From contig DVGU01000003.1 of NCBI GenBank assembly GCA_018712565.1, forward strand, positions 1 to 56,471: a stretch of 56,471 nucleotides of DNA, read 5' to 3'. A program made the position numbers and the translations under genes. Origin of the DNA: Candidatus Faecimonas gallistercoris (GTDB taxonomy: Bacteria; Bacillota_I; Bacilli_A; RF39; UBA660). Positions 27,255 through 56,471 of this stretch are shown here, one piece after another. Numbering within the stretch: the stretch's first letter is position 1; the number at the start of each line of letters is the position of its first letter. The notes beneath the pieces were generated by a model that searched no databases, was not told the DNA's origin, and saw only the letters and a list, made by a program, of their open reading frames with translations.

Positions 27255-27785
27255 TTGGACTTTGCATAACTCTAAACGCTAGATAGGTCTGTTTTGTCAT
27301 TACTGAATCAAAAGTAGTTACACCTTCTTTTCCTACATTCATTTTAACATATATTTCTATTATACTTCAAACATGATGTTATAACTAGCGTTAAAATCTC
27401 TATCATAGTATGTTTTACAATTTGGACAAATCCAATTTCTAACACTTAAATCTTTTACTTTCTCATTCTTATAGTACCTAGACTTACATTTGTTCAGTGT
27501 TTGGATAATTTCTTTTCTTCTATTATATCCTTTAAATCTAAGTCTTCTGTTACTTTAATATACACTTCTTTTAATTTTGGTAGAATAATTATATTTCTTT
27601 TTAAATCCAATTTTATGTTTTCATAAAATTTATCTTTATAGTTTTTTGAATTAATTCTATCGGTTTATTCTTTGGATAAAGTCTAAATTTATACGCTTTA
27701 TACATAAACCACCTCTCCTGATGAGAGTACTATATAATACACTTGTTCTTGTGTTAACTGTTTTTTATCAAGTTTTCAAATTTGC
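27255..27785 (-). mobile_element. Degenerate IS200/IS605-family element: tnpB pseudogene with left and right end regions
   Basis: RBS plus MYKAYKFRLYPKNKPIELIQK (TnpB N-terminus) at 27705. Many stops and frameshifts follow. The C-terminal zinc-finger/RuvC-III remnant is KNEKVKDLSVRNWICPNCKTYYDRDFNASYNIMFEV* (stop 27360-27362). The left-end motif aatttgaaaacttgataaaaaacagtt is shared with the 41441-41845 element. Confidence 0.7.
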
Positions 27786-35130: not shown

Positions 35131-35230
35131 GAACAAAAGAATTAAGTAAAATTAATTTCTTTAGTGATGTACCTAGACTCTTGTACTTTCTGGACTAAGT
35201 AACTTTACTTAGGGACTTTTTAATAAAAGA
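35131..35230 (-). repeat. Solo IS200/IS605 right-end (omega-RNA 3' scaffold-like) fragment upstream of obg
   Basis: It starts with gaacaaaagaattaagtaaa, identical to the termini at 41441 and 56097. It keeps the subterminal hairpin (aattaa-ttttac-ttaatt on the minus strand) and the gactaagtaac(t/c)ttactt block of the 56097 copy. No tnpB coding remnant is visible. Confidence 0.55.
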
Positions 35231-35429: not shown

Positions 35430-36638
35430 TTATGCTGCTTTCGTAAATGTCTGTGCTTGTTGTTGCTGGTTGGTTTGTTGTTTTGTTTGTTTTTGTTGCG
35501 CTGCTTCCTCTGCAAGTGTAGCTGCGGTTATATTTTCATTTCTTGGTGGCAAGATAATTGCCTGTGTTTGTTGCTTAGATTCTTCTCCTGGTAAAATAAT
35601 ATGTGACTCTTTAGGTGGTTCTTCTTGACCCGGTATAATGATGTGAGAGTTTGTTTTTGGTTCCTGTAATGGTATGATGAGTGAGGATAGTTCCGATGGT
35701 GCTTGCTCTTTTTCTATTGGTGCTTGTTCTTTTTCTATTGGTGTTTGCTCTTTTTCTATTGGTGTTTGCTCTTTCTCTATTGGTGTTTGTTGATTTTGCG
35801 TTGTTGGTTGCTGCTTTTGTATTGGCGTTTGTTGGTTTTGTTTTGGTGCTTGTTGTTTTTGGGTTGTTGTTTGTTGACTTGCTTTCTTTTTAGCATTACT
35901 CATACGTTTTCTAAGATTATTTATATCTTTTTTCGTCATAGCAACAACATTAGCTCCTAATATATGATTTTGTACACCCTTGGTCTGAAGTTTTTTTAAT
36001 TTTTCCTGAGCTTTTTCTAATTTATTTGCGTAGTATTCTCCTTTTATATCATAAATTGTATCCTTTATGCTATCGATTATTTTGTTTTCTGGATCCAAAT
36101 TTTGTCTTTTTTGATTTATTTGGTCTATTTTGTTTTGAGCATATGATACTTTTCCAGCTTTTTTAGAATATCTACCAAGTTTAAATTTCTCTACTATGTA
36201 TTTAGGCATAAGAAGTGCTTTTTGAATATCACTTATTAGATTTATTCTACATTGCTGATTTTGAAGTTTTTTTATTGCTCGTCTACTTCTTCTATTCATA
36301 ATTGCTGAACCTAATCTAGAAGAAACATTACTTTTTAACTCTTCTAATTCAGCTACTTTTTCCGCTTGCGTTTCTTTCTTTTTTAATATATTTTCAATTT
36401 TAGAATCTAGGGTTCCAACTAATACACCAGGTTCTATCGTTTGATTTTCTTTTATTCGCATCTGAAGTTCTGCTTGAATATGTTTTTGTTCTATCTTTAG
36501 TTTTTCAAGTCTTTTTTCTGACTGGGTTATCACTTTCATTAAGCCATTACTCTGAGATTGTAATAAAGCCATTTCCTCTGTAATATGTTTAAGAGAATTT
36601 TCTAATATTTCTCTATAATTATTCTCTGAATTATTCAT
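35430..36638 (-). CDS. Coiled-coil protein with a Q/P/T-rich repetitive C-terminal half
   Basis: 402 aa. The N-terminal 250 aa are heptad-like and charged. Then QQTPIQKQQPTTQNQQ and (PIEKEQ[TA])x5, followed by repeated IIIP/IILP..E motifs. Confidence 0.5.
   Translation of the reverse strand: MNNSENNYREILENSLKHITEEMALLQSQSNGLMKVITQSEKRLEKLKIEQKHIQAELQMRIKENQTIEPGVLVGTLDSKIENILKKKETQAEKVAELEELKSNVSSRLGSAIMNRRSRRAIKKLQNQQCRINLISDIQKALLMPKYIVEKFKLGRYSKKAGKVSYAQNKIDQINQKRQNLDPENKIIDSIKDTIYDIKGEYYANKLEKAQEKLKKLQTKGVQNHILGANVVAMTKKDINNLRKRMSNAKKKASQQTTTQKQQAPKQNQQTPIQKQQPTTQNQQTPIEKEQTPIEKEQTPIEKEQAPIEKEQAPSELSSLIIPLQEPKTNSHIIIPGQEEPPKESHIILPGEESKQQTQAIILPPRNENITAATLAEEAAQQKQTKQQTNQQQQAQTFTKAA
35697..35780. 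repeat. Four near-perfect 21-bp tandem repeats inside the 402-aa gene
   Basis: Units at 35697, 35718, 35739 and 35760 read tggtg(c/t)ttg(c/t)tcttt(t/c)tctat. A fifth, degenerate unit follows. They encode PIEKEQ(T/A). Confidence 0.85.
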
Positions 36639-36961: not shown

Positions 36962-37441
36962 TTAGAGTTTTTTTGTTGCAGTTTTTGCTGATTTACAGTA
37001 CGTTTCCATCAAGGCTTTATTTAACCATAGAGCATTTTCTTTCATTGAGGAATTTCTAGTTGTTTCAAATTCTCCTACTTGGTTAAATCTAGGATAAACA
37101 TTTCCATCTTCAGGTGTTTCATACCAGGCAATATTTGTTCCAGCTAGACTATTTTGTATCTCTAACATACATATTATGTAATTAGCATAAAAATTTCCTT
37201 TTTCATAGGGTTGTAAATGCTCATCTAGTTTATCGAATAATACTCCTAAATCCATTACTACACTTTCTATTTCATCATTTTCAATTAATTTTTGATAGCT
37301 ATACTCTAGAAGTGCTCTATTTAATGAAGCCATTACCTCACTTTTATTCTTATATATTTTTAATGGGAAAGCATGGGACCAAATAAATCCATCTACAGCC
37401 ATCATTTTTTCAACTTTACTATTAATATCATTTGAATTCAT
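36962..37441 (-). CDS. Hypothetical protein
   Basis: 159-aa ORF downstream of rpmA with no recognised motif. Confidence 0.4.
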   Translation of the reverse strand: MNSNDINSKVEKMMAVDGFIWSHAFPLKIYKNKSEVMASLNRALLEYSYQKLIENDEIESVVMDLGVLFDKLDEHLQPYEKGNFYANYIICMLEIQNSLAGTNIAWYETPEDGNVYPRFNQVGEFETTRNSSMKENALWLNKALMETYCKSAKTATKKL

Positions 37442-38095: not shown

Positions 38096-38398
38096 TTAAC
38101 CGTTGATTTTAGTAATTTGAATTTTTGTATAAGGTTGTCTATGTCCTTGTTTCTTACGGTTAGATCTGTCTTTTGATTTGTATTTGAAGACAGTTATTTT
38201 TCTTTGTTTACCGTTTTTGATAACTTTACCTTCTACAGTAACATTAGTAAGATAAGGACTTCCTATTTTACTATCAAGCATTAATACTTGGTCGAATTTA
38301 ACAACATCACCAGGATTTGCGTTTAATTTTTCTACAAAAATTTCACATCCTTCTGTTACGTAATATTGTTTTCCTCCAACTTTAATTACAGCATTCAT
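38096..38398 (-). CDS. rplU: 50S ribosomal protein L21
   Basis: MNAVIKVGGKQYYVTEG...VEGKVIKNGKQRKITVFKYKSKDRSNRKKQGHRQPYTKIQI. Start after GGAGG. Confidence 0.95.
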   Translation of the reverse strand: MNAVIKVGGKQYYVTEGCEIFVEKLNANPGDVVKFDQVLMLDSKIGSPYLTNVTVEGKVIKNGKQRKITVFKYKSKDRSNRKKQGHRQPYTKIQITKING

Positions 38399-38530
38399 TC
38401 GTATACCTCCTTTTTTTAACTTAAGACTCGCTCTTAAGGTACAAGATTTGCTTGTTTTTACCTTTTCAATGCGGTTTGAGCGTGAGGCGTCAAACATTTA
38501 AAGTATAGCATATCTGTCTATGGATGTCAA
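38399..38530 (-). promoter_or_regulatory. rplU promoter plus structured 5' leader (L21-leader-like)
   Basis: Minus strand has TTGACA (38525-38530), a 17-nt spacer, then TATACT (38502-38507). The about 100-nt leader has three hairpins: GTTTGA-cgcctcacgc-TCAAAC, GGTAaaaaCAAGcaaatCTTGTACC, and CTTAAG-agcgagt-CTTAAG. Confidence 0.55.
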
Positions 38531-38567: not shown

Positions 38568-40418
38568 TTATTTTGTTAGTTTCTTAATGGTTTCTATCTT
38601 ACTTGGTAATATAGGACGAGTTGGAAATAGCATTTGAGATATGGTTGGAGTTATCCCTTGGGATAGTAAAGACTCTTTTCTTTTTTTTACTTTATTTTTA
38701 GAAAAATAAATATCTTGATAAATATAAGTTCTTGGTGTTTCTTTTATATCTTCTTTAGAGATATGTAGTTGTTGTAGGGTTGAATCTTCTAATTTCTTTT
38801 CTATTATATAACTTTCTATTTTATTTGTTGGTACTATAAATTTGTCTGTATTTAATACAGCTCGTAATTGGTCATTTGTTACTGGAATATTTAATTGTTC
38901 TAATATTTTTAGTCTGTTTAATCTGCTTTTTTCATAACTTAACAATCCTAAATCAGACTCTAGTGCTTTTTCTAGACCTAATTCTAAGACTAGATTTATT
39001 TTTTCTTCTAAGTCAGCTGTTTCTAAAAAGGTATAATCTGTTGCGTTTTCTAATAATTCTTGCAACTGGTAGCTTTTTAAAGTTTGTAAGTTTATGCTTA
39101 GGGTTTTTGGTGTTATTAATAATGGATATTGATCTTTTGAAAAAATTTTGTAATCTGTATTTTTAGTTTCAAGATTATTTATATTTATTTTTATATTTTG
39201 AACTAGATTTTTGTCTTGTTCTAATATTTCTGGATGCATTACGATAGTTTTTTTCGATAAAATTTCTTCGGCTATTAAATCATTTATTTGATTGATATAT
39301 TCTTTTGAGGTATTTAGAATGATTTTTTTGATTGTTTGAGGGTTGGTGATTGTCATATTATTTATATTTTCTAATAAGTACTTTAAGTCGTTATAGGTAT
39401 AGTGTTGAGCTATCTTTTTGGAATCTAGATATTTTGAAAGATAATATTTTTCTAATAATCTTTGATATTTTAGAATAGAATTTTGAGATAATGATTGATA
39501 TTCTTGATTTAGACGATTGTAATATACTTTGTTGTGTTCATAAATATATTTTAATATTTTGATACGTAACTCTTGCTTAGGTATTGCACTTATAAATTTT
39601 TCATAATCTGTGATTTCTTCTTGATTACTCGTTTGTTTAATTGTATTAATTAACCGGTTATATCTATCAATAATATGTTTTTCGGCAGTCTGGGTGTTTT
39701 TTTCTTTTTGTTTTATTATTTTATAATATTTAATAATTTTCCGGCAGTGAGATTCTAATTTTTTAATTGCAAAATCTTTTTTTAGGGTATCTATAATAAT
39801 TTTATTTTTGTCAAAAGCTGTTAATGGTATTTTGTTATTTGCTATCATTAAGTCTATTTCTAATTGTTTTTTTCTTTCACTTATCATTTTTAGTCCATAG
39901 GCAAAAATTAAAGTATCATTCCATACTTCATTATTCTTGGCAAATTCATGAACAAATTCCATTAATTTTCCATCTTGTTGTTTTACCATGGTTTCTACAC
40001 CATTCATCATTGTTTCATCGAAATCATTTTTTTCAACAAGTCTATATAAAAAGTAATTTCTCTTGGTAATATTTTTTTCTTCTAAGAATCTACGAATTAT
40101 AGGATATACTTTAGGACTTGCTAGATAGTACATCGTTTTTCTAGTATGGTTAATATTTTCGAAAGATGTTTCATCAAAAAAAGTTCGTAAATAACTAGCG
40201 ATTTTTTGTAATTCTTCGAATGAATAAGTTTTAATTTGACTTCTTACATAGGCAATTATAAAATCTTTTATTTTTATGTTTGTATAAGTTATAGGATTGG
40301 AGAAGTCTTTATTTTTTAAAAATTGTTCATAAAACTGTAGTTCAGGACTGGTTTGTTTGTACTTTTTTGTGACTTTTTCTTTTTCTTTTCTTATTTCTTC
40401 AATAATTTCTTCTTGCAC
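38568..40418 (-). CDS. Module copy 1, protein B1: 616-aa predicted helical protein of unknown function (paralog of 41871-43706)
   Basis: Aligns end to end with B2. Shared blocks are ITDYEKF/ITSYHF...L(R)(I/M)..LKYIY.HN..YY..L...Y..LS.NS, LELG...LGLL.YE..R..RL.ILEQLNIPV, and KEDIKETPRTYIYQ(D/G)IYFSKNK. It uses a GTG start at the position homologous to the B2 ATG and overlaps the A1 stop by 28 nt. Confidence 0.6.
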   Translation of the reverse strand: MQEEIIEEIRKEKEKVTKKYKQTSPELQFYEQFLKNKDFSNPITYTNIKIKDFIIAYVRSQIKTYSFEELQKIASYLRTFFDETSFENINHTRKTMYYLASPKVYPIIRRFLEEKNITKRNYFLYRLVEKNDFDETMMNGVETMVKQQDGKLMEFVHEFAKNNEVWNDTLIFAYGLKMISERKKQLEIDLMIANNKIPLTAFDKNKIIIDTLKKDFAIKKLESHCRKIIKYYKIIKQKEKNTQTAEKHIIDRYNRLINTIKQTSNQEEITDYEKFISAIPKQELRIKILKYIYEHNKVYYNRLNQEYQSLSQNSILKYQRLLEKYYLSKYLDSKKIAQHYTYNDLKYLLENINNMTITNPQTIKKIILNTSKEYINQINDLIAEEILSKKTIVMHPEILEQDKNLVQNIKININNLETKNTDYKIFSKDQYPLLITPKTLSINLQTLKSYQLQELLENATDYTFLETADLEEKINLVLELGLEKALESDLGLLSYEKSRLNRLKILEQLNIPVTNDQLRAVLNTDKFIVPTNKIESYIIEKKLEDSTLQQLHISKEDIKETPRTYIYQDIYFSKNKVKKRKESLLSQGITPTISQMLFPTRPILPSKIETIKKLTK

Positions 40419-41380
40419 TCTTGATCACTGCCCTTTCTTTTTTCTCCTCGCAATAAGCTCCATACTTCTTGTCCTTTTTTCTCATTATATTGTCTAAATT
40501 CTTTGTTTTCTAAATTTGCTAATAGTATTGGTCTTAGACTTTTATAATCACTACTTTTTCTTTCTAATTGTTCTTGAGAACCTTTGTTATTCGTTACTTT
40601 TTTTGTAAATGCGGAAATTATGACATATGTATTTGGAGTAATACCATCATAGAGTATTCTTATTCCAAGACTAATATCTCGTACCTCACTAAGTCCTCCT
40701 GTTTTGTGATTACCTGCTCTAAAGCGTTTTACATTTTTAAATGTTCCCTCTTGTATGGAGGTTAGTAAAGCTAAAAAGCCTTCATAATACTCTCTGGGTA
40801 TTGATTTTAAATCTTCTAGTATTCTTATTTTTTCGGTTGATTTTGGTAGAAAAATTAACTTATTTTTTGACGGATGATCTATTTGGTGCTTATCTTTTTT
40901 TTCTAGTTTTTGATTAATTACATTTATTTTTAATTCTTCTTGAAGTAATTCTTGTTTAAAAAAAGTTAAATCTTCATTATCTAAATTATCTAATTCTGTT
41001 TCTATAAAATCTTTTATTTCATAGATATTTTTTTGAAATTCTAATTTTAGACGAAATAAAATTTTTTTATAATTATGTTTCTTTGAAGATGGTAGTAGTT
41101 GATTTATTTTTGACTCTGTAACATTTCTTTCTAGGGCATTTAGGGGTGATAGATAATAATCTATTTCATCTTCAAATATACTTTCTGTTTCTTCTTCTAG
41201 TGATGAATGGGGCGTTTCTTTTTTTATTTCTCGTGGTTGTTCGGATGTTATTTTTTTTATTTTTTTTAATTCTTCTATGCTGTATTTCATAGATATAGAT
41301 ATGCGATGATTATTTTTTAATATTACTAGTATTTCCTCCTCTGTTAAATCTTCTTTATTTAAGGATTGATAAGTTAACAT
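40391..41380 (-). CDS. Module copy 1, protein A1: 329 aa, acidic N-terminal half plus HigB/Gp49 (RelE/ParE-superfamily)-like C-terminal domain
   Basis: C-terminal LIFLPKSTEKIRILEDLKSIPREYYEGFLALLTSIQEGTFKNVKRFRAGNHKTGGLSEVRDISLGIRILYDGITPNTYVIISAFTKKVTNNKG follows the Gp49/HigB pattern (..L..lp......f......l.......k.l.g.l.ElR....g.R.ly......vvil.aF.KK....). Paralog of 43691-44680. Confidence 0.55.
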   Translation of the reverse strand: MLTYQSLNKEDLTEEEILVILKNNHRISISMKYSIEELKKIKKITSEQPREIKKETPHSSLEEETESIFEDEIDYYLSPLNALERNVTESKINQLLPSSKKHNYKKILFRLKLEFQKNIYEIKDFIETELDNLDNEDLTFFKQELLQEELKINVINQKLEKKDKHQIDHPSKNKLIFLPKSTEKIRILEDLKSIPREYYEGFLALLTSIQEGTFKNVKRFRAGNHKTGGLSEVRDISLGIRILYDGITPNTYVIISAFTKKVTNNKGSQEQLERKSSDYKSLRPILLANLENKEFRQYNEKKGQEVWSLLRGEKRKGSDQECKKKLLKK

Positions 41381-41405
41381 TGGGATCCCCCCTTTAGGTG
41401 TTGTT

Positions 41406-41434
41406 ATTGTATCACAACTTTATGTATTTTACAA
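41406..41434 (-). promoter_or_regulatory. SigmaA-type promoter for module copy 1, directly downstream of the IS right end
   Basis: Minus strand has TTGTAA (41429-41434), a 17-nt spacer, then TG-extended TACAAT (41406-41411). It lies 25 nt upstream of the A1 RBS region. Confidence 0.45.
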
Positions 41435-41440
41435 TTTATA

Positions 41441-41845
41441 GAACAAAAGAATTAAGTAAACTTAAGTCACCTTGATCGTCACCTTTCAAGTTTCCTGCTT
41501 CATAGACTAGGTATCCCTACTTCGTGATTGCTTAACATCCGATAGTCGCTACCGTAGTTTTCTTTTGTCTTTTACTTTTTCTATTTTAATTCTATCATAT
41601 ATTTCTTTTAAAAAGGGGTGTTCTACTTGTAAGTTTTTTAAATCTTTTATCATATCAAAACAAGATAAAGAACTTTTTTCTCTTCATAAAGAGTTTTATT
41701 TTTATTCAAATAATGATTATAAACAAATCTAGTACAACCAAATGTTTTGTGAATTACCTCTACTTGATTAGTTGTAGGATACAAACGAAACCGATAAGAT
41801 CTATTGTTCGTATGTCAACTGTTTTTTATCAAGTTTTCAAATTCC
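41441..41845 (-). mobile_element. Miniature, internally deleted IS200/IS605-family element (tnpB 5' remnant + 3' end + RE/omega-RNA scaffold)
   Basis: Left-end motif aatttgaaaacttgataaaaaacagtt (41817-41843). TnpB N-terminal remnant without a start codon: YRFRLYPTTNQVEVIHKTFGCTRFVYNHYLNK. A deletion follows. The last codons are ..KKYMIELK*. The about 140-nt tail is near-identical to 56097-56237 and ends gaacaaaagaattaagtaaa. Confidence 0.7.
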
Positions 41846-41870
41846 TTATAAATAAAAAGACATATCTTAG

Positions 41871-43706
41871 TTATTTTTTCTTTTGATATGTCTTCATTAA
41901 TATTTGTTGTTGACTATAGGTAAACTTTCTATCTAATAAGAACGTCTTGGTTAGTGATGGTACAACTTGTTCTTGTTCTAAAGTCATAAAATTATTTTTT
42001 ATTTTATTTTTAGAAAAGTAGATTCCTTGATAGATATAAGTTCTTGGTGTTTCTTTTATATCTTCTTTTTCTATTGTAACCTGTTTTGGAGTAATACTTG
42101 ATACTGATATGTAATCTTCTAGTTTTTCATCTGGTACAAAAAAGCTATTTGTATGTAATAGTCCTTCTAATTCATTATCTTCTACTGGAATATTTAATTG
42201 CTCTAATATCTGTAGTCTCATCCATCTTTTTTGTTCATAATTTAATAGACCTAAATTATGAACTAGACTATCTTCTCTTCCTAATTCTAATATGTTATCT
42301 ATTTTATTTTCTAATTCTTCTTCTGTTAAGAAATCATAATTAGTTGTTGTTGTAATAGAAGGTAATAAATTATATTTTTTTAATATTGCTAGATTTTCTT
42401 TTAAACTATCTTCTGGTAGTAAAACTACTTCATTTTTTCTTCGATATAAATTTCTATTACCAGTGATTTCTTCTATAGTTTTTATATTTTGTTTTATTCT
42501 ATCTACATAGTTTTTAGTTTTATCCCAGCAATCTATATTATTTTTTATAGTATCTATTGTTATATATCCTTGATCGATTAGTTTTAGTATTTCATCAACA
42601 GTATTTACAGTAGTCATTTTTATAATTGTTGATAGTATTTCTGGACTTGTTATACTAATATTTTTTAAAGTTTTTAAAGTATTTTCTAAGTCTTGATAGG
42701 TATAATTATTCATGATTTCCTTTATATCTATATTTATTAGATTATATCTTTGTGTTAGCTCTTGAAAATTTAGAAGAGAATTTTTAGATAGTGTTTCATA
42801 TTTTTGTTCTAATTGTTGATAGTATTTTTGATTATGACTATAGATATATTTTAATACATCCATCCGTAAGGCATCATCTCTAATCTTGGAAGCAAGGAAA
42901 TGATAACTTGTAATTTCTTCTTCTGGATGAGATAGTTTTTCTATTATATAGTTATAGTTTTTAATATCTTTTTTGGTTGTTTGTTTTCTATCTTTTTCTG
43001 ACTTTTTTAATCTTTCATAATATTTATATATATTTTGGCAAGTAGATTGTATTTCTTCTGAATCATATTCTTCATTGAATCGAGATTGAATTGATGTTTT
43101 AGAAGAAAATAAAGAGGTTTTATTTTTTGGTTGATATCCTAAGGATAGTAGATATGCTTTTTGTTCACATATTTTTTTAATAAATCCTATCATTAATAAA
43201 GAGTATCCCCAGGTATCAGAATCCTTTTCATATAGTAGAAGAAAATCTTGGAGTTTTTTATTATCTTTTAGTAGACTTAATCCTGTTTTTAGCATCTCAT
43301 CATCACTTGTATATAAAATTAGTTGGCTTAAAGCGTTTTTTCTATCGTCTTCTTCTAATGTTAAAATTGCTTTTATTCCGTAATATATTTCTGGATTATC
43401 AGGATTAGTTACTTCATCTATTGTTTCTAGTAATGATTGTGTTTCTGTTGAGGTAAGTGGTTGTAGTACTGGGTATATTGAATCTATGATTTCAGTTAGT
43501 TCCTCAAATGTATAAGATGTATTATAACTTTTTACATAGGCTAGTAAAAAGTTTTTTAAGTTTATTTGGTCGTAGTTTTCAAAATCGGTTAGGTCAAGAT
43601 TATCTAACAATTCTTTAAAGAAGGTAATTTCTTCTGATTGGTTAACAAGAGAGGTTTCTAGTTTTTTTATTTGTTGATTTATTTTTTTGATTATTTCGTT
43701 TTGCAT
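41871..43706 (-). CDS. Module copy 2, protein B2: 611-aa predicted helical protein of unknown function (paralog of 38568-40418)
   Basis: ATG preceded by AGGAGG. Overlaps the A2 stop by 16 nt. Colinear with B1 along its whole length. Confidence 0.6.
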   Translation of the reverse strand: MQNEIIKKINQQIKKLETSLVNQSEEITFFKELLDNLDLTDFENYDQINLKNFLLAYVKSYNTSYTFEELTEIIDSIYPVLQPLTSTETQSLLETIDEVTNPDNPEIYYGIKAILTLEEDDRKNALSQLILYTSDDEMLKTGLSLLKDNKKLQDFLLLYEKDSDTWGYSLLMIGFIKKICEQKAYLLSLGYQPKNKTSLFSSKTSIQSRFNEEYDSEEIQSTCQNIYKYYERLKKSEKDRKQTTKKDIKNYNYIIEKLSHPEEEITSYHFLASKIRDDALRMDVLKYIYSHNQKYYQQLEQKYETLSKNSLLNFQELTQRYNLINIDIKEIMNNYTYQDLENTLKTLKNISITSPEILSTIIKMTTVNTVDEILKLIDQGYITIDTIKNNIDCWDKTKNYVDRIKQNIKTIEEITGNRNLYRRKNEVVLLPEDSLKENLAILKKYNLLPSITTTTNYDFLTEEELENKIDNILELGREDSLVHNLGLLNYEQKRWMRLQILEQLNIPVEDNELEGLLHTNSFFVPDEKLEDYISVSSITPKQVTIEKEDIKETPRTYIYQGIYFSKNKIKNNFMTLEQEQVVPSLTKTFLLDRKFTYSQQQILMKTYQKKK

Positions 43707-44680
43707 TTGATGCCTCCTGTCGATGTTGTTTTATGATTTTTTAATGTATTATATAGTTCTGTTTCGTATTCTTGTTGTTGTCCCATAAACTCAGCATTGT
43801 CTAAATTTTCTTTAATCGCTGGTAACATATTCTTATAATTTAATGTTTTATTCGTTAATTGATTTTGATACCCTTTATTATGGGATGTTTTTTTCATAAA
43901 GGCTGTAATTATGGCATAAGTATCTAGACCTATTCTATCAAAGATTACTCTTGCTCCTGTTGATATATCTCTTACTTCACTGATACCACTCATTTTTTTA
44001 TCTACACGACTAAATCTTTTTACATTTTTAAAAGTATTATTTTTAATTGATTCAATCAGTTCTAAAAAACTAGGATAATGTTCTTTTGAAATATTTTGGA
44101 GTTCTTCTAATATGCGAATATTTCCTCCAGAAGTTGGAACAAAAACTAATTTATTTTTTATTTCTTCTTCCTTGGTGTTATCATTTGTTAATACTTGATC
44201 TATAGCATTGATTTTTCTTCGTTCTATTAATTTTTCTTGTTTTAAATACTCTGCTTCACTCTCTTTTAAGGAAGGGAGTTCTAGTAAGAGGTCGTGGATG
44301 CTTTCTAATGATTTTATAGCTTCTAGTTTTAAACGAAATAATAGATTTTGATAATTACTATTTTTTTTGGATGGTAAAAGACGTATAATTTCTTCATCTT
44401 CCATTTCGATAGTAACACTTCCTAAGCTATTTAGATAGAAATCCACTTCATCTTCAAAAGAATATTCTTCTGTTTCTTCTTCACTATCGTTTGTTAGGTG
44501 TATTTCTTCTGATTGGGTCTTTATATATTTTTCTTGTTTTGTTTTCTTGGCTATTTCTTCTAATTGTTTTGTTTTTAATTTTATGTTTATGGCATGTTGT
44601 TTATTTTTATCTAACACATCCATTAATTCTTGTTCTGTTATGTTATCTAAATCGATAAATTCAAATGATGTCTTTAACAT
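43691..44680 (-). CDS. Module copy 2, protein A2: 329 aa, acidic N-terminal half plus HigB/Gp49-like C-terminal domain
   Basis: LVFVPTSGGNIRILEELQNISKEHYPSFLELIESIKNNTFKNVKRFSRVDKKMSGISEVRDISTGARVIFDRIGLDTYAIITAFMKKTSHNKG. Shares FEDE(I/V)D(Y/F)YL and LLPS.K..NY..(I/L)LFRLKLE with A1. AGGAGG RBS 24 nt after the helicase stop. Confidence 0.55.
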   Translation of the reverse strand: MLKTSFEFIDLDNITEQELMDVLDKNKQHAINIKLKTKQLEEIAKKTKQEKYIKTQSEEIHLTNDSEEETEEYSFEDEVDFYLNSLGSVTIEMEDEEIIRLLPSKKNSNYQNLLFRLKLEAIKSLESIHDLLLELPSLKESEAEYLKQEKLIERRKINAIDQVLTNDNTKEEEIKNKLVFVPTSGGNIRILEELQNISKEHYPSFLELIESIKNNTFKNVKRFSRVDKKMSGISEVRDISTGARVIFDRIGLDTYAIITAFMKKTSHNKGYQNQLTNKTLNYKNMLPAIKENLDNAEFMGQQQEYETELYNTLKNHKTTSTGGIKCKTK

Positions 44681-44704
44681 ATAAAGCCTCCTTTTTCTAT
44701 TTTA

Positions 44705-46705
44705 TTATCTTAGTGTTTTCGTTTTTTGTGAGTTATTATGATTTAATTTTTCCTTGGTAAAGACTGTTACATCTTCTATAGAATTAGTTACGTTAGAGAA
44801 TGGAAGAGAGTCGATAACTGATTCTTTATAGTCTGTTATTCTAGAGTCTAATATTGATACTATTCCTTTATCGGACTCACTTCTAATTAGTCTTCCTGCT
44901 CCTTGTTTTAACTTTAATAACATTTCTGGTAAATAAACTTCCTTAAATCCATTTTTATAATTTGATGCTTTTTCTTCGATGATTGGCTCTACAATTGGAA
45001 ATGGTAGTTTTGTGATAATTACTTGTTCTAATGATTCTCCTTTAATATCAATTCCTTCCCAGAAAGAACCTGTTGCTAATAACACAGAGGTAGTATCTTC
45101 TTTAAATTCTTCTTTCAATATCTCAGCATTTTTACCATCTTCTTGTACTAAGATATTAAAATCATGATTTGATTTTTGCAATCTTTTATATACTTCTCTC
45201 ATATCTTGCTTTGATGTAAATAAAACTAGGCTTCTACCTCCGGTTGCCTCTACTAATTCATCTACTTTTGTAGCTAGAGAATCTAGGTATAATTGATGAT
45301 CTTTACTTTTAGGATTAACTACATCTGTTGCACAATAAAGAAGTGCATTTTCATCGTAATTATATGGAGAAGGCTGACTAAATTCTTGAAAGAGAGGTTG
45401 TCCTATTATTTGATCTAGACCTAACCCTTTTATAAAGTAACTATAATCGTCTTTTTTTGTAGTAAGGGTTGCTGAGGTAAAAACTTTTCCGTAGTTAGAA
45501 TTACTTAATAATTGGCGAGCAATTTCAGCTGTGTTTTTCGGTACATAATTTAGTTCAATATGTTCTTTCGTGTTTGATAAAAATTGTGCCCAGTAAATAT
45601 TTTTGCTATCCTCTGATATTAAATCTGAAAATATAACTCTCATTTCTTTTAAATTACTTATTTGTCTTAATAAGCTTCTACTTGTACTTGGATAGCTTCT
45701 AGCATTTACTTCTAAATCATATAACTGTTCTATTAACTCTTCTACTGTCTCTTTTATTTTTGGAGTACAAGTAAAACCACTGGCTTCTTTATCTAAAATA
45801 TCTACCTCTTCCTGAGCAGACTTTCTATATTCTCTTTTCGCCTTGGTACTTATCATACGAAACACATGATTAATTGAGTCTATTAACGGTAAGTTATCCT
45901 CTATAGGAATGTCCATTTGATTATAAATATTATAAATTAGTGATTCCAAAGCTGGTTTTGAGATTGTTTTTTTATAAGCATTCGTTATTTTTTCTAACAG
46001 TGTATGTGCTTCATCTACAATTAATATTGATGGATCGTTTACTAATTTATCTTCACTATCTCTTTGTAATATATTTACTAATAAATCATGATTACAAATA
46101 ATATTTTTACTTTCTTTCCATTGCTTTCTAGTCGATATAAATTTACAATCATTTTGGTGTAGACAATTAGTACAGTTGGCCATATCTACATTAATTTTTT
46201 TCCATATTTTTGAAGGAAGCTCCTCATAGTCTTTTTTATCCATTTTTCCTTGTTTGGCTTTTTGTCTTAAATATTGATATTTCCTCTTACTATCTTTAAA
46301 TTTTAAAAAGTTGTCTAATCTTTTTTGACATAAATAATTGTTTTTTCCTTTTGCAACTGTAACATTAATATCAATTCCTAATAATTCTGATACTTTGTTT
46401 ACTTCTTGTTCTAGTTGTTCTTCTAGAGCGATTGAAGATGTAGAAATTAAAAATCCATTAAATTTTTCTTTATTTTTACTAGCAGATATTAATGGAATTA
46501 AATAAGCCCAGGATTTTCCTATTCCTACACCTGCTTCTATTACTAATATTTCTTTATTTTCAATAATATCAAAGATATCATAACTCATTATATCTTGTCC
46601 AGGACGGTCTTTTATCTTTTTTTGTCCTTTTAACTTTTCAAAAAAATTATCGATATTGTCATATAGTTCTTGATTGAACTCTTCTTTTTGCCTCCATATA
46701 CTCAT
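44705..46705 (-). CDS. DinG/XPD (Rad3)-family Fe-S DNA helicase, no exonuclease domain
   Basis: Motif I EAGVGIGKSWAYLIP, DEAH box ILIVDEAHTL, four Cys between motifs Ia and II (NYLCQKR; ANCTNCLHQNDCKF), ATGSFWEGIDIKG, motif VI QGAGRLIRSESDKG. Start MSIWRQ after AAAGGGGAAG. Confidence 0.85.
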   Translation of the reverse strand: MSIWRQKEEFNQELYDNIDNFFEKLKGQKKIKDRPGQDIMSYDIFDIIENKEILVIEAGVGIGKSWAYLIPLISASKNKEKFNGFLISTSSIALEEQLEQEVNKVSELLGIDINVTVAKGKNNYLCQKRLDNFLKFKDSKRKYQYLRQKAKQGKMDKKDYEELPSKIWKKINVDMANCTNCLHQNDCKFISTRKQWKESKNIICNHDLLVNILQRDSEDKLVNDPSILIVDEAHTLLEKITNAYKKTISKPALESLIYNIYNQMDIPIEDNLPLIDSINHVFRMISTKAKREYRKSAQEEVDILDKEASGFTCTPKIKETVEELIEQLYDLEVNARSYPSTSRSLLRQISNLKEMRVIFSDLISEDSKNIYWAQFLSNTKEHIELNYVPKNTAEIARQLLSNSNYGKVFTSATLTTKKDDYSYFIKGLGLDQIIGQPLFQEFSQPSPYNYDENALLYCATDVVNPKSKDHQLYLDSLATKVDELVEATGGRSLVLFTSKQDMREVYKRLQKSNHDFNILVQEDGKNAEILKEEFKEDTTSVLLATGSFWEGIDIKGESLEQVIITKLPFPIVEPIIEEKASNYKNGFKEVYLPEMLLKLKQGAGRLIRSESDKGIVSILDSRITDYKESVIDSLPFSNVTNSIEDVTVFTKEKLNHNNSQKTKTLR

Positions 46706-46733
46706 ACTTACTTCCCCTTTCCATTGTTGGCAT

Positions 46734-46762
46734 ATTATATCATATTTTTTAGTTTTTTGCAA
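46734..46762 (-). promoter_or_regulatory. SigmaA-type promoter of the helicase-module operon
   Basis: Minus strand has TTGCAA (46757-46762), a 17-nt spacer, then TG-extended TATAAT (46734-46739). Confidence 0.55.
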
Positions 46763-55901: not shown

Positions 55902-56096
55902 ATTATTTCCTCCTAATTTAGAATAAAAATTATTTTATCTTTTATTAATTTTTATATCTAGAACATATTCACTTGATAAGACTTTATTCTTTTTATATAC
56001 CTTTTAGATTATATTCTAATTTTACTTATTTATTCTTTTTTCCTATTTATAGGATTATATACTTGTGAACCTGCCCTGATATATTCAAATTTTAAA

Positions 56097-56237
56097 GAAC
56101 AAAAGAATTAAGTAAACTTAATTCGCCTTGATCGTCACCTTTCAAGTTTCCTGCTTCTCAGACTAAGTAACCTTACTTCTCCACAGGCTTAACATCCGAT
56201 AGTCGCTACCGTAGTTTTCTTTTGTTTCTTTCTTTTT
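56097..56237 (-). ncRNA. IS200/IS605 right end / candidate TnpB omega-RNA (reRNA) scaffold
   Basis: Non-coding tail directly after the tnpB stop. It contains stem-loops and a subterminal hairpin GAATTAAGT-tt-ACTTAATTC 11 nt from the terminus. It is near-identical to 41441-41580, and its last 20 nt also occur at 35131. Confidence 0.4.
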
Positions 56238-56471
56238 CTACTTTAACTCCATCATATACTTCTTTAATCCTTCAAACATAATATTATAACTAGCATTATA
56301 ATCTCTATCATGATAACTTCCACATTCTGGACAAGTCCATTCTCTAACACTTAAGTCTTTTACTTTCTCATTCTTATAGCCACACCTGCTACACTCCTGA
56401 CTACTTGGATAATAACTATCTATTTTGATATATTTCTTTCCATATATCTTAGCTTTATATTCTAAGACTCT
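56238..56471 (-). CDS. tnpB: IS200/IS605-family TnpB (IS605 OrfB) C-terminal part, truncated by the window edge
   Basis: Open frame to the edge: RVLEYKAKIYGKKYIKIDSYYPSSQECSRCGYKNEKVKDLSVREWTCPECGSYHDRDYNASYNIMFEGLKKYMMELK*. It has a CxxC...CxxC zinc finger followed by the RuvC-III HDRD.NA..NI motif. Confidence 0.8.
   Translation of the reverse strand, partial: RVLEYKAKIYGKKYIKIDSYYPSSQECSRCGYKNEKVKDLSVREWTCPECGSYHDRDYNASYNIMFEGLKKYMMELK

Follow-up and report, generated by a model that had tools for sequence, protein, structure and literature searches.

The 56,471-nucleotide (nt) stretch of contig DVGU01000003.1 of Candidatus Faecimonas gallistercoris analysed here (positions 1-56471, hereafter the window) carries on its minus strand two consecutive gene pairs, A2-B2 and A1-B1, each encoding a putative RelE-fold protein (A) and a large helical partner (B). 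The host chromosome has a GC content of ~27%. After pyrH (divergent, plus strand) come, in order, a helicase gene, A2, B2, a spacer, A1, B1, rplU, prp and rpmA, and downstream of rpmA lie genes for a 159-aa protein, a DUF1292 protein, a 402-aa protein and obg (Table 1). The helicase, A2, B2, A1 and B1 genes are all intact and co-oriented. The stop codon of the helicase gene and the start of A2 are 24 nt apart, and the overlaps are 16 nt between A2 and B2 and 28 nt between A1 and B1. A first-pass annotation, made from the DNA letters, had described these five genes, their coordinates, lengths, gap and overlaps correctly. Its by-eye estimate of one third to 40% identity between the copies also agrees with the alignments, in which A1 and A2 are 39% identical over 329 aa (E 8e-68) and B1 and B2 are 34% identical over 604 aa (E 3e-96). 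The two pairs that it reported as a tandem duplication are present but not strictly in tandem; the 490 nt between them hold the decayed N-terminal part of an IS605-family TnpB gene and a repeat, content that it had missed. The full arrangement is kept in all sampled strains of the species, among which (six strains) substitutions are too few for dN/dS to be interpreted.

Table 1. Features of the A-B locus and of related pairs. Positions refer to the window unless another locus is named; ORF, open reading frame.
Feature	Coordinates	Strand	Description
Helicase	44705..46705 (ORF extends to TTG 46762)	-	YoaA/DinG-family Fe-S helicase, 666 aa
A2	43691..44680	-	329 aa; predicted N-terminal helical domain and Gp49/HigB-type RelE-fold domain
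B2	41871..43706	-	611-aa all-alpha partner; B-family member
Spacer between pairs	41381..41870	-	490 nt; decayed IS605-family element
A1	40391-41380	-	Full gene, 329 aa
A1 N-terminal helical domain	40886..41380	-	Residues 1-165
A1 RelE/HigB (Gp49-type) domain	40511..40861	-	Residues ~174-290, including long helix alpha-3
B1	38568..40418	-	616-aa all-alpha partner, GTG start
B1 mTERF-like repeat region	38799..39401	-	Residues ~340-540, best-conserved part of B
Promoter-like site, helicase	46734..46762	-	TTGCAA, 17 nt, TG-n-TATAAT; consensus match only
Promoter-like site, A1-B1	41406..41434	-	TTGTAA, 17 nt, TACAAT, upstream TG; consensus match only
Promoter-like site, rplU-prp-rpmA	38502..38530	-	TTGACA, 17 nt, TATACT, upstream TG; between B1 stop and rplU
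Pair without RelE domain, L007	6534-8929		
Pair without RelE domain, L014	7439-9885		
Pair without RelE domain, L016	7418-9879		

The structure of A was predicted, not determined experimentally, with an AlphaFold2 (AF2) model built on the family alignment (predicted local distance difference test, pLDDT, 82; predicted template modelling score, pTM, 0.69). In the model of A1, the N-terminal domain consists of four helices (residues 14-46, 59-81, 104-128 and 135-160) with a pLDDT of ~90. The unit that follows (174-289) has the order beta-alpha-alpha-beta-beta-beta plus a long helix, with strands at 174-177, 231-235, 240-248 and 251-259 and helices at 186-193, 196-211 and 265-289. The long alpha-3 helix is typical of Gp49-type toxins. 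One more helix and a disordered basic tail lie beyond the RelE domain. The first-pass annotation had placed a HigB/Gp49 domain in the last 110 aa of A; such a domain is present with its catalytic residues intact, at residues ~174-290 and not at the C-terminal end. The structural check that it had proposed agrees, and the first 12 Foldseek matches of A in the PDB all belong to the RelE superfamily (best E 7.8e-4). These matches include Streptococcus pneumoniae HigB (6af4/6af3; E 7.8e-4, probability 1.0), with TMt values up to 0.64, and also Mycobacterium tuberculosis HigB1 (7nbu), Escherichia coli RelE (4fxh), HigB2 (5jaa) and Cami1.

Sequence profiles have given matches to the same family. The Pfam Gp49 model (PF05973) aligned to residues 189-271 of A1 (E 0.0036; 17.8 bits, cut-off 23.9), and 9 of 16 relatives of A matched it at E<=0.1 (best 1.4e-5), one of them with a precomputed PF05973 assignment. 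Other searches added little. The full profile of A gave coiled-coil noise only against the PDB, the profile of its C-terminal domain gave matches to AgrA LytTR, CEP104 and HigB, none of them significant, and the single-sequence query gave nothing. PADLOC, PHROGs and NCBIfam also contained nothing for A, with no PADLOC match for either A1 or A2. Five residues are invariant or nearly so in the family, namely E232, R234 (R or K), R241, F258 and K260 of A1, and these align in HMMER to E66, R68, R73, F90 and K92 of S. pneumoniae HigB (6af3_A). The S. pneumoniae residues correspond to the catalytic E66, R68, R77, F93 and K95 of M. tuberculosis HigB, in which the substitution K95A removes toxicity (PMC9098466). 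The corresponding motifs SEVRD, ARVIF and AFMKK are present in A2. The N-terminal domain of A1 is variable and retains the motifs FEDE.DYY and LPS.K..NY..IL.RLKLE. Because of the Gp49 matches, the Foldseek results and the aligned invariant residues, the C-terminal domain of A looks like a catalytically competent Gp49-type HigB domain, and RNase activity may be expected from the sequence and the model.

The partner protein B belongs to a sizeable unannotated all-alpha family. In the AF2 model of B1 (pLDDT 80.5, pTM 0.47) the protein is helical throughout except for a C-terminal beta-hairpin (564-573), and about six repeats of ~32 aa, each of a long helix and two short helices, occupy residues ~340-540. 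When B was compared with itself in hhalign, it gave marginal matches shifted by ~94 aa (E 0.06-0.08). Foldseek placed MTERF4 (probability 0.91, TMt 0.43, E 0.6) and MTERF1 (E 1-2) near the top of the matches, none of which was significant in the PDB or BFVD, and Pfam gave no mTERF match in 32 members of the family. An mTERF-like solenoid in B is a lead, not a result, for which the predicted model provides weak evidence. Neither the copies in the window nor 32 diverse relatives could be assigned to a Pfam, NCBIfam, PADLOC or PHROG family; in PADLOC-DB 2.0 there was no match for B2 and a chance-level one for B1 (E 0.023). These searches agree with the earlier description of B as a large helical protein with no recognisable helix-turn-helix (HTH) motif and no named family or defence system. 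A word-indexed homolog search returned at least 15 clusters for A and at least 14-15 for B, and exhaustive HMMER searches have shown that the B family is far larger, with 513 clusters (at 50% identity) at E<=1e-3 and 417 at E<=1e-10. Most of the best 150 of the 513 clusters are ~570-660 aa long. Two other identities were considered for B and rejected. A profile match to PDCD10 in the PDB (E 0.002) lies in a K/E-rich segment of high bias and was judged compositional. The position of the locus suggested a diverged analogue of RecN, SpoIVF or RNase G, but B has neither ATPase, protease or S1 motifs nor a family match.

Related loci have been recovered from a scan of GTDB species (48 loci, all in metagenome-assembled genomes (MAGs) of uncultured gut organisms) and from metagenome contigs (11 more), and context was counted over 55 non-redundant related loci. 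The taxon labels of the GTDB loci are mostly Bacilli, Mycoplasmatota, Tenericutes or Mollicutes, with a few other or unlabelled; one example of a host is 'Candidatus Faecimonas intestinavium' (Bacilli incertae sedis). A B-family gene follows A wherever downstream sequence exists, except in a few distant or decayed loci (L052-L055), and two very divergent B genes were recognised by hidden Markov model only. At each of the 51 A-to-B junctions that could be scored, the two genes overlap or lie <=2 nt apart, in keeping with the translationally coupled pair described at first pass. Of the 55 loci, 27 have the pair directly upstream of rplU(-prp-rpmA) and 6 have it directly upstream of rpsJ, which heads the S10 operon. 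The pair was also seen in the stretch from xseB to spoIVB, in the order leuS-A-B-ABC-greA, and before an asnS-type synthetase gene. One or two copies of A-B are present per locus. Searches of phage, plasmid and IMG/VR collections found no A-B. Some of the distant loci have additional features. L056 and L057 carry a protein with AAA-ATPase_like and PDDEXK_9 domains before A and a divergent 534-aa B after it, followed by the asnS-type gene. No recognisable B lies between A and the asnS-type gene in L053, the contig of which begins at A, or in L055, in which A is only 201 aa long.

The A-B pairs diverge faster than the genes around them. In relatives that have RplU 97%, PyrH 84% and AddA ~80% identical to those of the window, A is only 40-45% and B only 26-39% identical. 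The pairs of this group fall into at least six co-varying types, present as one or two per genome at the same site. The two copies in the window belong to different old types, which are found singly or otherwise combined in related species, and the suggestion that a local duplication had diversified specificity is not supported by this distribution. Orthologous pairs also outpace their flanks; between L001 and L017, identity amounts to 86% for AddA, 69% for A and 55% for B. The divergence is unevenly distributed within the proteins. Mean family identity is 19-26% in the N-terminal domain of A and 48% in the RelE domain, and it is 13-18% in residues 1-280 of B and 23-33% in residues 281-540. 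Split or frameshifted B genes occur in L011, L015 and L033, in which MAG assembly error is possible.

Truncated pairs and an exchanged block add to this pattern. In L007, L014 and L016 the first (promoter-proximal) pair has an 'A' of 173-191 aa, which is the N-terminal domain alone, followed by a full-length B. Loss of the RelE domain with the N-terminal domain and B kept, as in these three species, is the order of decay expected if the RelE domain is toxic. L007 and L016 share ~99% nucleotide identity except for a sharply bounded 1.6-kb block (L007 6540-8121) at 62-84%, which comprises the short A (N-domain) and its B up to codon ~355, a pattern that indicates recombinational cassette replacement within the species. 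The comparisons point to a pair-specific interface, probably formed by the N-terminal domain of A and the N-terminal half of B, that diversifies and is swapped as one cassette; the conserved working parts would be the RNase domain and the C-terminal solenoid of B.

The spacer between the two pairs contains the first ~46 codons of a TnpB gene (41659-41796), matched by HTH_OrfB_IS605 at E 3.8e-18, together with a repeat of 175 nt (41435-41608), of which an 88% identical copy lies at 56091-56265 and shorter pieces match 27743-27782 and 35131-35155. The repeat may represent a family of miniature inverted-repeat transposable element (MITE)-like sequences or of omega-RNA/right-end remnants; it has no match in Rfam, and weaker copies were seen in L048 and L028. 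In the whole window, Rfam gave no family at gathering score, including no L21 leader and no omega-RNA. The promoter that the first-pass annotation had placed before the five genes is present at 46762-46734 and is plausible once the helicase start is set at ATG 46705. It is a consensus match, in an AT-rich region where such matches are at chance level overall (60 found, 53 expected). The rplU promoter-like site is the strongest in the region, with 11 of 12 matches. No terminator-like sites were found in the region, and a search for operator-like palindromes upstream of A in five loci gave nothing consistent, only AT-rich chance matches.

Several observations concern the neighbouring genes. The rplU ORF as listed (133 aa, 38096-38497) is over-extended; L21 starts with MNAVIKV at 38398 and has 100 aa (38096-38398), and the rplU promoter-like site lies within the 169 nt upstream of this start. 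No tRNA genes were found in the 56-kb window, despite several ribosomal-protein and translation genes. The tail of the 402-aa protein (35430-36638) is rich in Q and P and contains repeated QTPIEKE units; the protein is 402 or 409 aa long among conspecific strains. For the 159-aa protein (36962-37441, downstream of rpmA), the gene calls of several strains give only 105 aa. Neither protein has a Pfam family, and both lie where spo0B is located in Bacillus subtilis. One conspecific strain (L065, 5070-6203) carries a DDE_Tnp_1 transposase inserted downstream of obg, followed by a DUF87/FtsK-like gene that is not called in the matching stretch of the other strain loci; strains thus vary close to the A-B locus.

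The first-pass annotation had also tentatively joined the helicase to A and B in a three-part unit. The identification of the gene as a DinG/XPD-family helicase of the iron-sulfur (Fe-S) type is sound. The start at ATG 46705, which gives 666 aa, is favoured by alignment with the L017 ortholog, by the ribosome-binding site and by gene calls in other strains. Pfam finds Helicase_C_2 (3.6e-40), DEAD and DEAD_2 domains. The Walker A (GVGIGKS) and DEAH motifs and four cysteines (C145, C197, C200 and C206) are conserved in the L017 ortholog, and the NCBIfam YoaA model aligns over positions 16-629 of 630 (5.4e-113). The protein has all the motifs, the four-Cys cluster and the full-length alignment of YoaA/DinG/XPD Fe-S helicases, but its score is under the cut-off of the YoaA equivalog (379 vs 680 bits), a difference that concerns the neighbouring gene and not A-B. 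Judged from sequence and neighbourhood, it is a full-length YoaA/DinG-like Fe-S repair helicase and not a component of the module, because it adjoins A-B only in the species of the window and in L017.

A single defence or toxin-antitoxin (TA) unit of helicase, A and B would be consistent with the short distance between the helicase stop and A (24 nt in the window, 14 nt in L017, with no terminator in either), which makes co-transcription of the helicase with A likely in these two. DinG-family helicases also occur in defence systems, and PADLOC models for type IV Csf4 match the window helicase. The neighbourhood survey argues strongly in the other direction, since 54 of the 55 loci have A-B without a DinG-family helicase beside it, L017 being the one that has it. 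L001 has the same A-B type as L017 and no helicase, and the best full-length match of the protein is the repair helicase YoaA. A metagenome scan for helicase relatives yielded one homolog, 34% identical and uninformative; its contig ends ~0.8 kb downstream and carries neither A nor B. Overall, the three-part unit is very improbable, and a false lead has been removed with the helicase now a bystander.

The reading that we favour, with a probability of roughly 0.5, is that A-B is a TA or abortive-infection-like module with a putative function, chromosomally fixed in this clade. A conflict system fits because the types co-vary, the toxin domain is lost with its partner kept, cassettes are exchanged and copy number is variable. 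The TA or defence type proposed at first pass was plausible and has been strengthened, in its two-gene form, by the rapid co-divergence, the RNase-less copies and the cassette exchange; its three-part form is not supported. The unit would be the A-B pair, with the helicase excluded. By homology, the C-terminal domain of A would bind the ribosomal A site and cleave mRNA in a ribosome-dependent manner, and the N-terminal helical domain would be a pair-specific adaptor. B would be made in fixed ratio to A through the overlapping reading frame. Most probably, the hypervariable N-terminal half of B would bind the N-terminal domain of A and keep the RNase inactive. More speculatively, the C-terminal solenoid (mTERF-like, possibly nucleic-acid-binding) and the hairpin may have a common sensing or regulatory role. 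When B is lost, titrated or triggered, A would be freed, cut translating mRNAs and arrest growth.

Several results weigh against the TA or abortive-infection reading. The Pfam Gp49 match is below cut-off for A1 and absent for A2, and the PDB sequence match of A to HigB is not significant alone (E 0.25). No HTH and no known antitoxin fold were found in B, which exceeds known HigA antitoxins sixfold in size. The same chromosomal position is held across deep divergence, with no copies in the phage, plasmid and viral collections searched, unlike typical mobile TA or defence loci. The pairs without a RelE domain are intact and 64-79% identical among three species; they stay conserved, and therefore the N-terminal domain of A together with B has some function without the RNase. 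In addition, the lineage-specific 159-aa neighbour diverges between species about as fast as A-B, and the host organism is uncultured.

A domesticated, translation-linked role stays alive because of the stable synteny with two ribosomal operons, the lack of mobile copies, the RNase-less copies and the size of B. A-B could be a lineage-specific housekeeping complex of the translation apparatus and not a conflict system. Its RelE module would dock on the ribosome, with an mTERF-like RNA-binding solenoid to target or regulate it, and could serve in regulated mRNA or rRNA processing, in quality control of ribosomes, or in a shut-down linked to growth rate or sporulation. This explanation is possible, though doubtful. 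Its support is mainly positional. A ribosomal-protein operon begins directly downstream of the pair in 33 of the 55 loci (rplU 27, rpsJ 6), in other loci the pair borders leuS, an asnS-type synthetase gene, tyrS or greA, and the whole arrangement is kept in every sampled strain of the species of the window. MTERF4, which has the highest probability among the Foldseek matches, is bound to rRNA in an intermediate of ribosome assembly, and the intact RNase-less copies point to an independent function. The statistics of the mTERF similarity are weak, however, and a copy number of 1-2, highly divergent types in close relatives and within-species cassette exchange are unexpected for translation factors. 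B is also frameshifted or split in L011, L015 and L033. The rplU gene has its own promoter-like site, so co-regulation with A-B is not required. The caveat of the first-pass annotation, that the position beside rplU allows a housekeeping role, has thus kept its force as a live rival, with the pair syntenic clade-wide and never found on mobile elements. An intermediate proposal, in our view rather doubtful, is that A-B is a ribosome-directed surveillance module of a kind not recognised before and confined to one clade of low-GC gut Bacilli that are uncultured. It would be neither mobile in the manner of classical TA modules nor simply a housekeeping factor. It would combine the HigB-type endonuclease with a diversifying helical interface and an mTERF-like nucleic-acid-binding solenoid. 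Its place at the head of ribosomal-protein operons would let dosage track ribosome synthesis, and cassette swaps would create immunity-like specificity types.

The division of labour between A and B may also differ from that outlined above. A could be a fused toxin-antitoxin in which the N-terminal domain masks the RelE domain in cis, with B as a sensor, trigger or transcription regulator that controls release, similar to CapRel-type fused defence toxins or cA4-activated Cami1. The AF2 model of A (pTM 0.69) has confident N- and C-terminal domains in one arrangement, the sensor-fused RelE RNase Cami1 is among the Foldseek matches, and the large size and hypervariable N-terminal half of B suit a sensor. 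Multidomain and fused RelE-superfamily toxins are also on record in the part of the literature survey consulted here (PMC11980606). The N-terminal domain of A co-varies and swaps with the N-terminal half of B, which argues for a direct interface between the two, and it persists with B where the toxin domain is gone. Masking in cis is unlikely in the light of these two results, and inhibition of A by B is preferred within the TA or abortive-infection reading.

RNases of the RelE/HigB type are normally toxins of ~100 aa that are held in check by small HTH antitoxins and carried on mobile DNA. Here a HigB-type catalytic domain lies in a two-domain protein coupled to a partner of 610 aa, whose unannotated family comprises hundreds of clusters. 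Although retained vertically beside operons for ribosomal proteins, the A-B pair diversifies in the manner of an immunity locus. Should A prove active and under the control of B, the pair would represent a new TA or abortive-infection architecture with a giant, possibly nucleic-acid-binding, antitoxin or sensor, and also a TA-like module fixed in the reduced genomes of uncultured gut bacteria.

Comparisons with known systems place A-B near several of them. Gerdes (2025) has surveyed multidomain defence toxins of the RelE/ParE (BECR-fold) group, including fused TA genes, PtuZ of ptuXYZ and ToxM (PMC11980606). As in A, the toxins in the consulted part of that survey have a RelE-superfamily RNase domain within a larger protein and are encoded in small operons of suspected defence role (PMC11980606). 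That part describes no helical N-terminal domain joined to a Gp49 domain with a ~600-aa helical partner, and two of the surveyed systems are unlike A; PtuZ has a PIN-like N-terminal domain with DUF262 and ATPase partners, and ToxM is a membrane protein (PMC11980606). More generally, the literature contained no account of the A-B architecture and nothing relevant on bacterial mTERF proteins linked to TA systems. Cami1, the type III CRISPR-associated, cyclic tetra-adenylate (cA4)-activated and ribosome-dependent enzyme (8PHB/8PHJ), is also a RelE-fold RNase fused to a regulatory domain, as is A. It differs in its CARF sensor and CRISPR context; A lacks such a domain, and none of the A-B loci was reported to contain a CRISPR-related family. 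With MTERF1 and MTERF4, B shares the predicted ~32-aa repeats of two helices and a short helix at ~340-540. It differs from them in an unrelated N-terminal half of ~330 aa and in the C-terminal hairpin, and membership in the mTERF family is not established.

The closest likeness is to the Gp49-type HigB toxins of S. pneumoniae (6AF3/6AF4) and of the M. tuberculosis TAC (toxin-antitoxin-chaperone) system (7NBU). A has in common with them the predicted RelE fold, the long C-terminal helix and the conserved E-x-R, R and F-x-K residues. As in higBA, the toxin-type gene comes first and the partner gene overlaps it (51 of 51 scorable junctions). A differs from HigB in an additional N-terminal helical domain of ~170 aa and in a C-terminal helix with a basic tail, and the A-B locus, unlike the M. 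tuberculosis TAC system, is without a SecB-like chaperone. B is an all-alpha protein of 611-616 aa and not an HTH antitoxin of ~100 aa of the XRE/HigA kind. Overall, A-B contrasts with the sporadic and mobile type II higBA loci in being chromosomally syntenic, with 33 of 55 loci at rplU or rpsJ.

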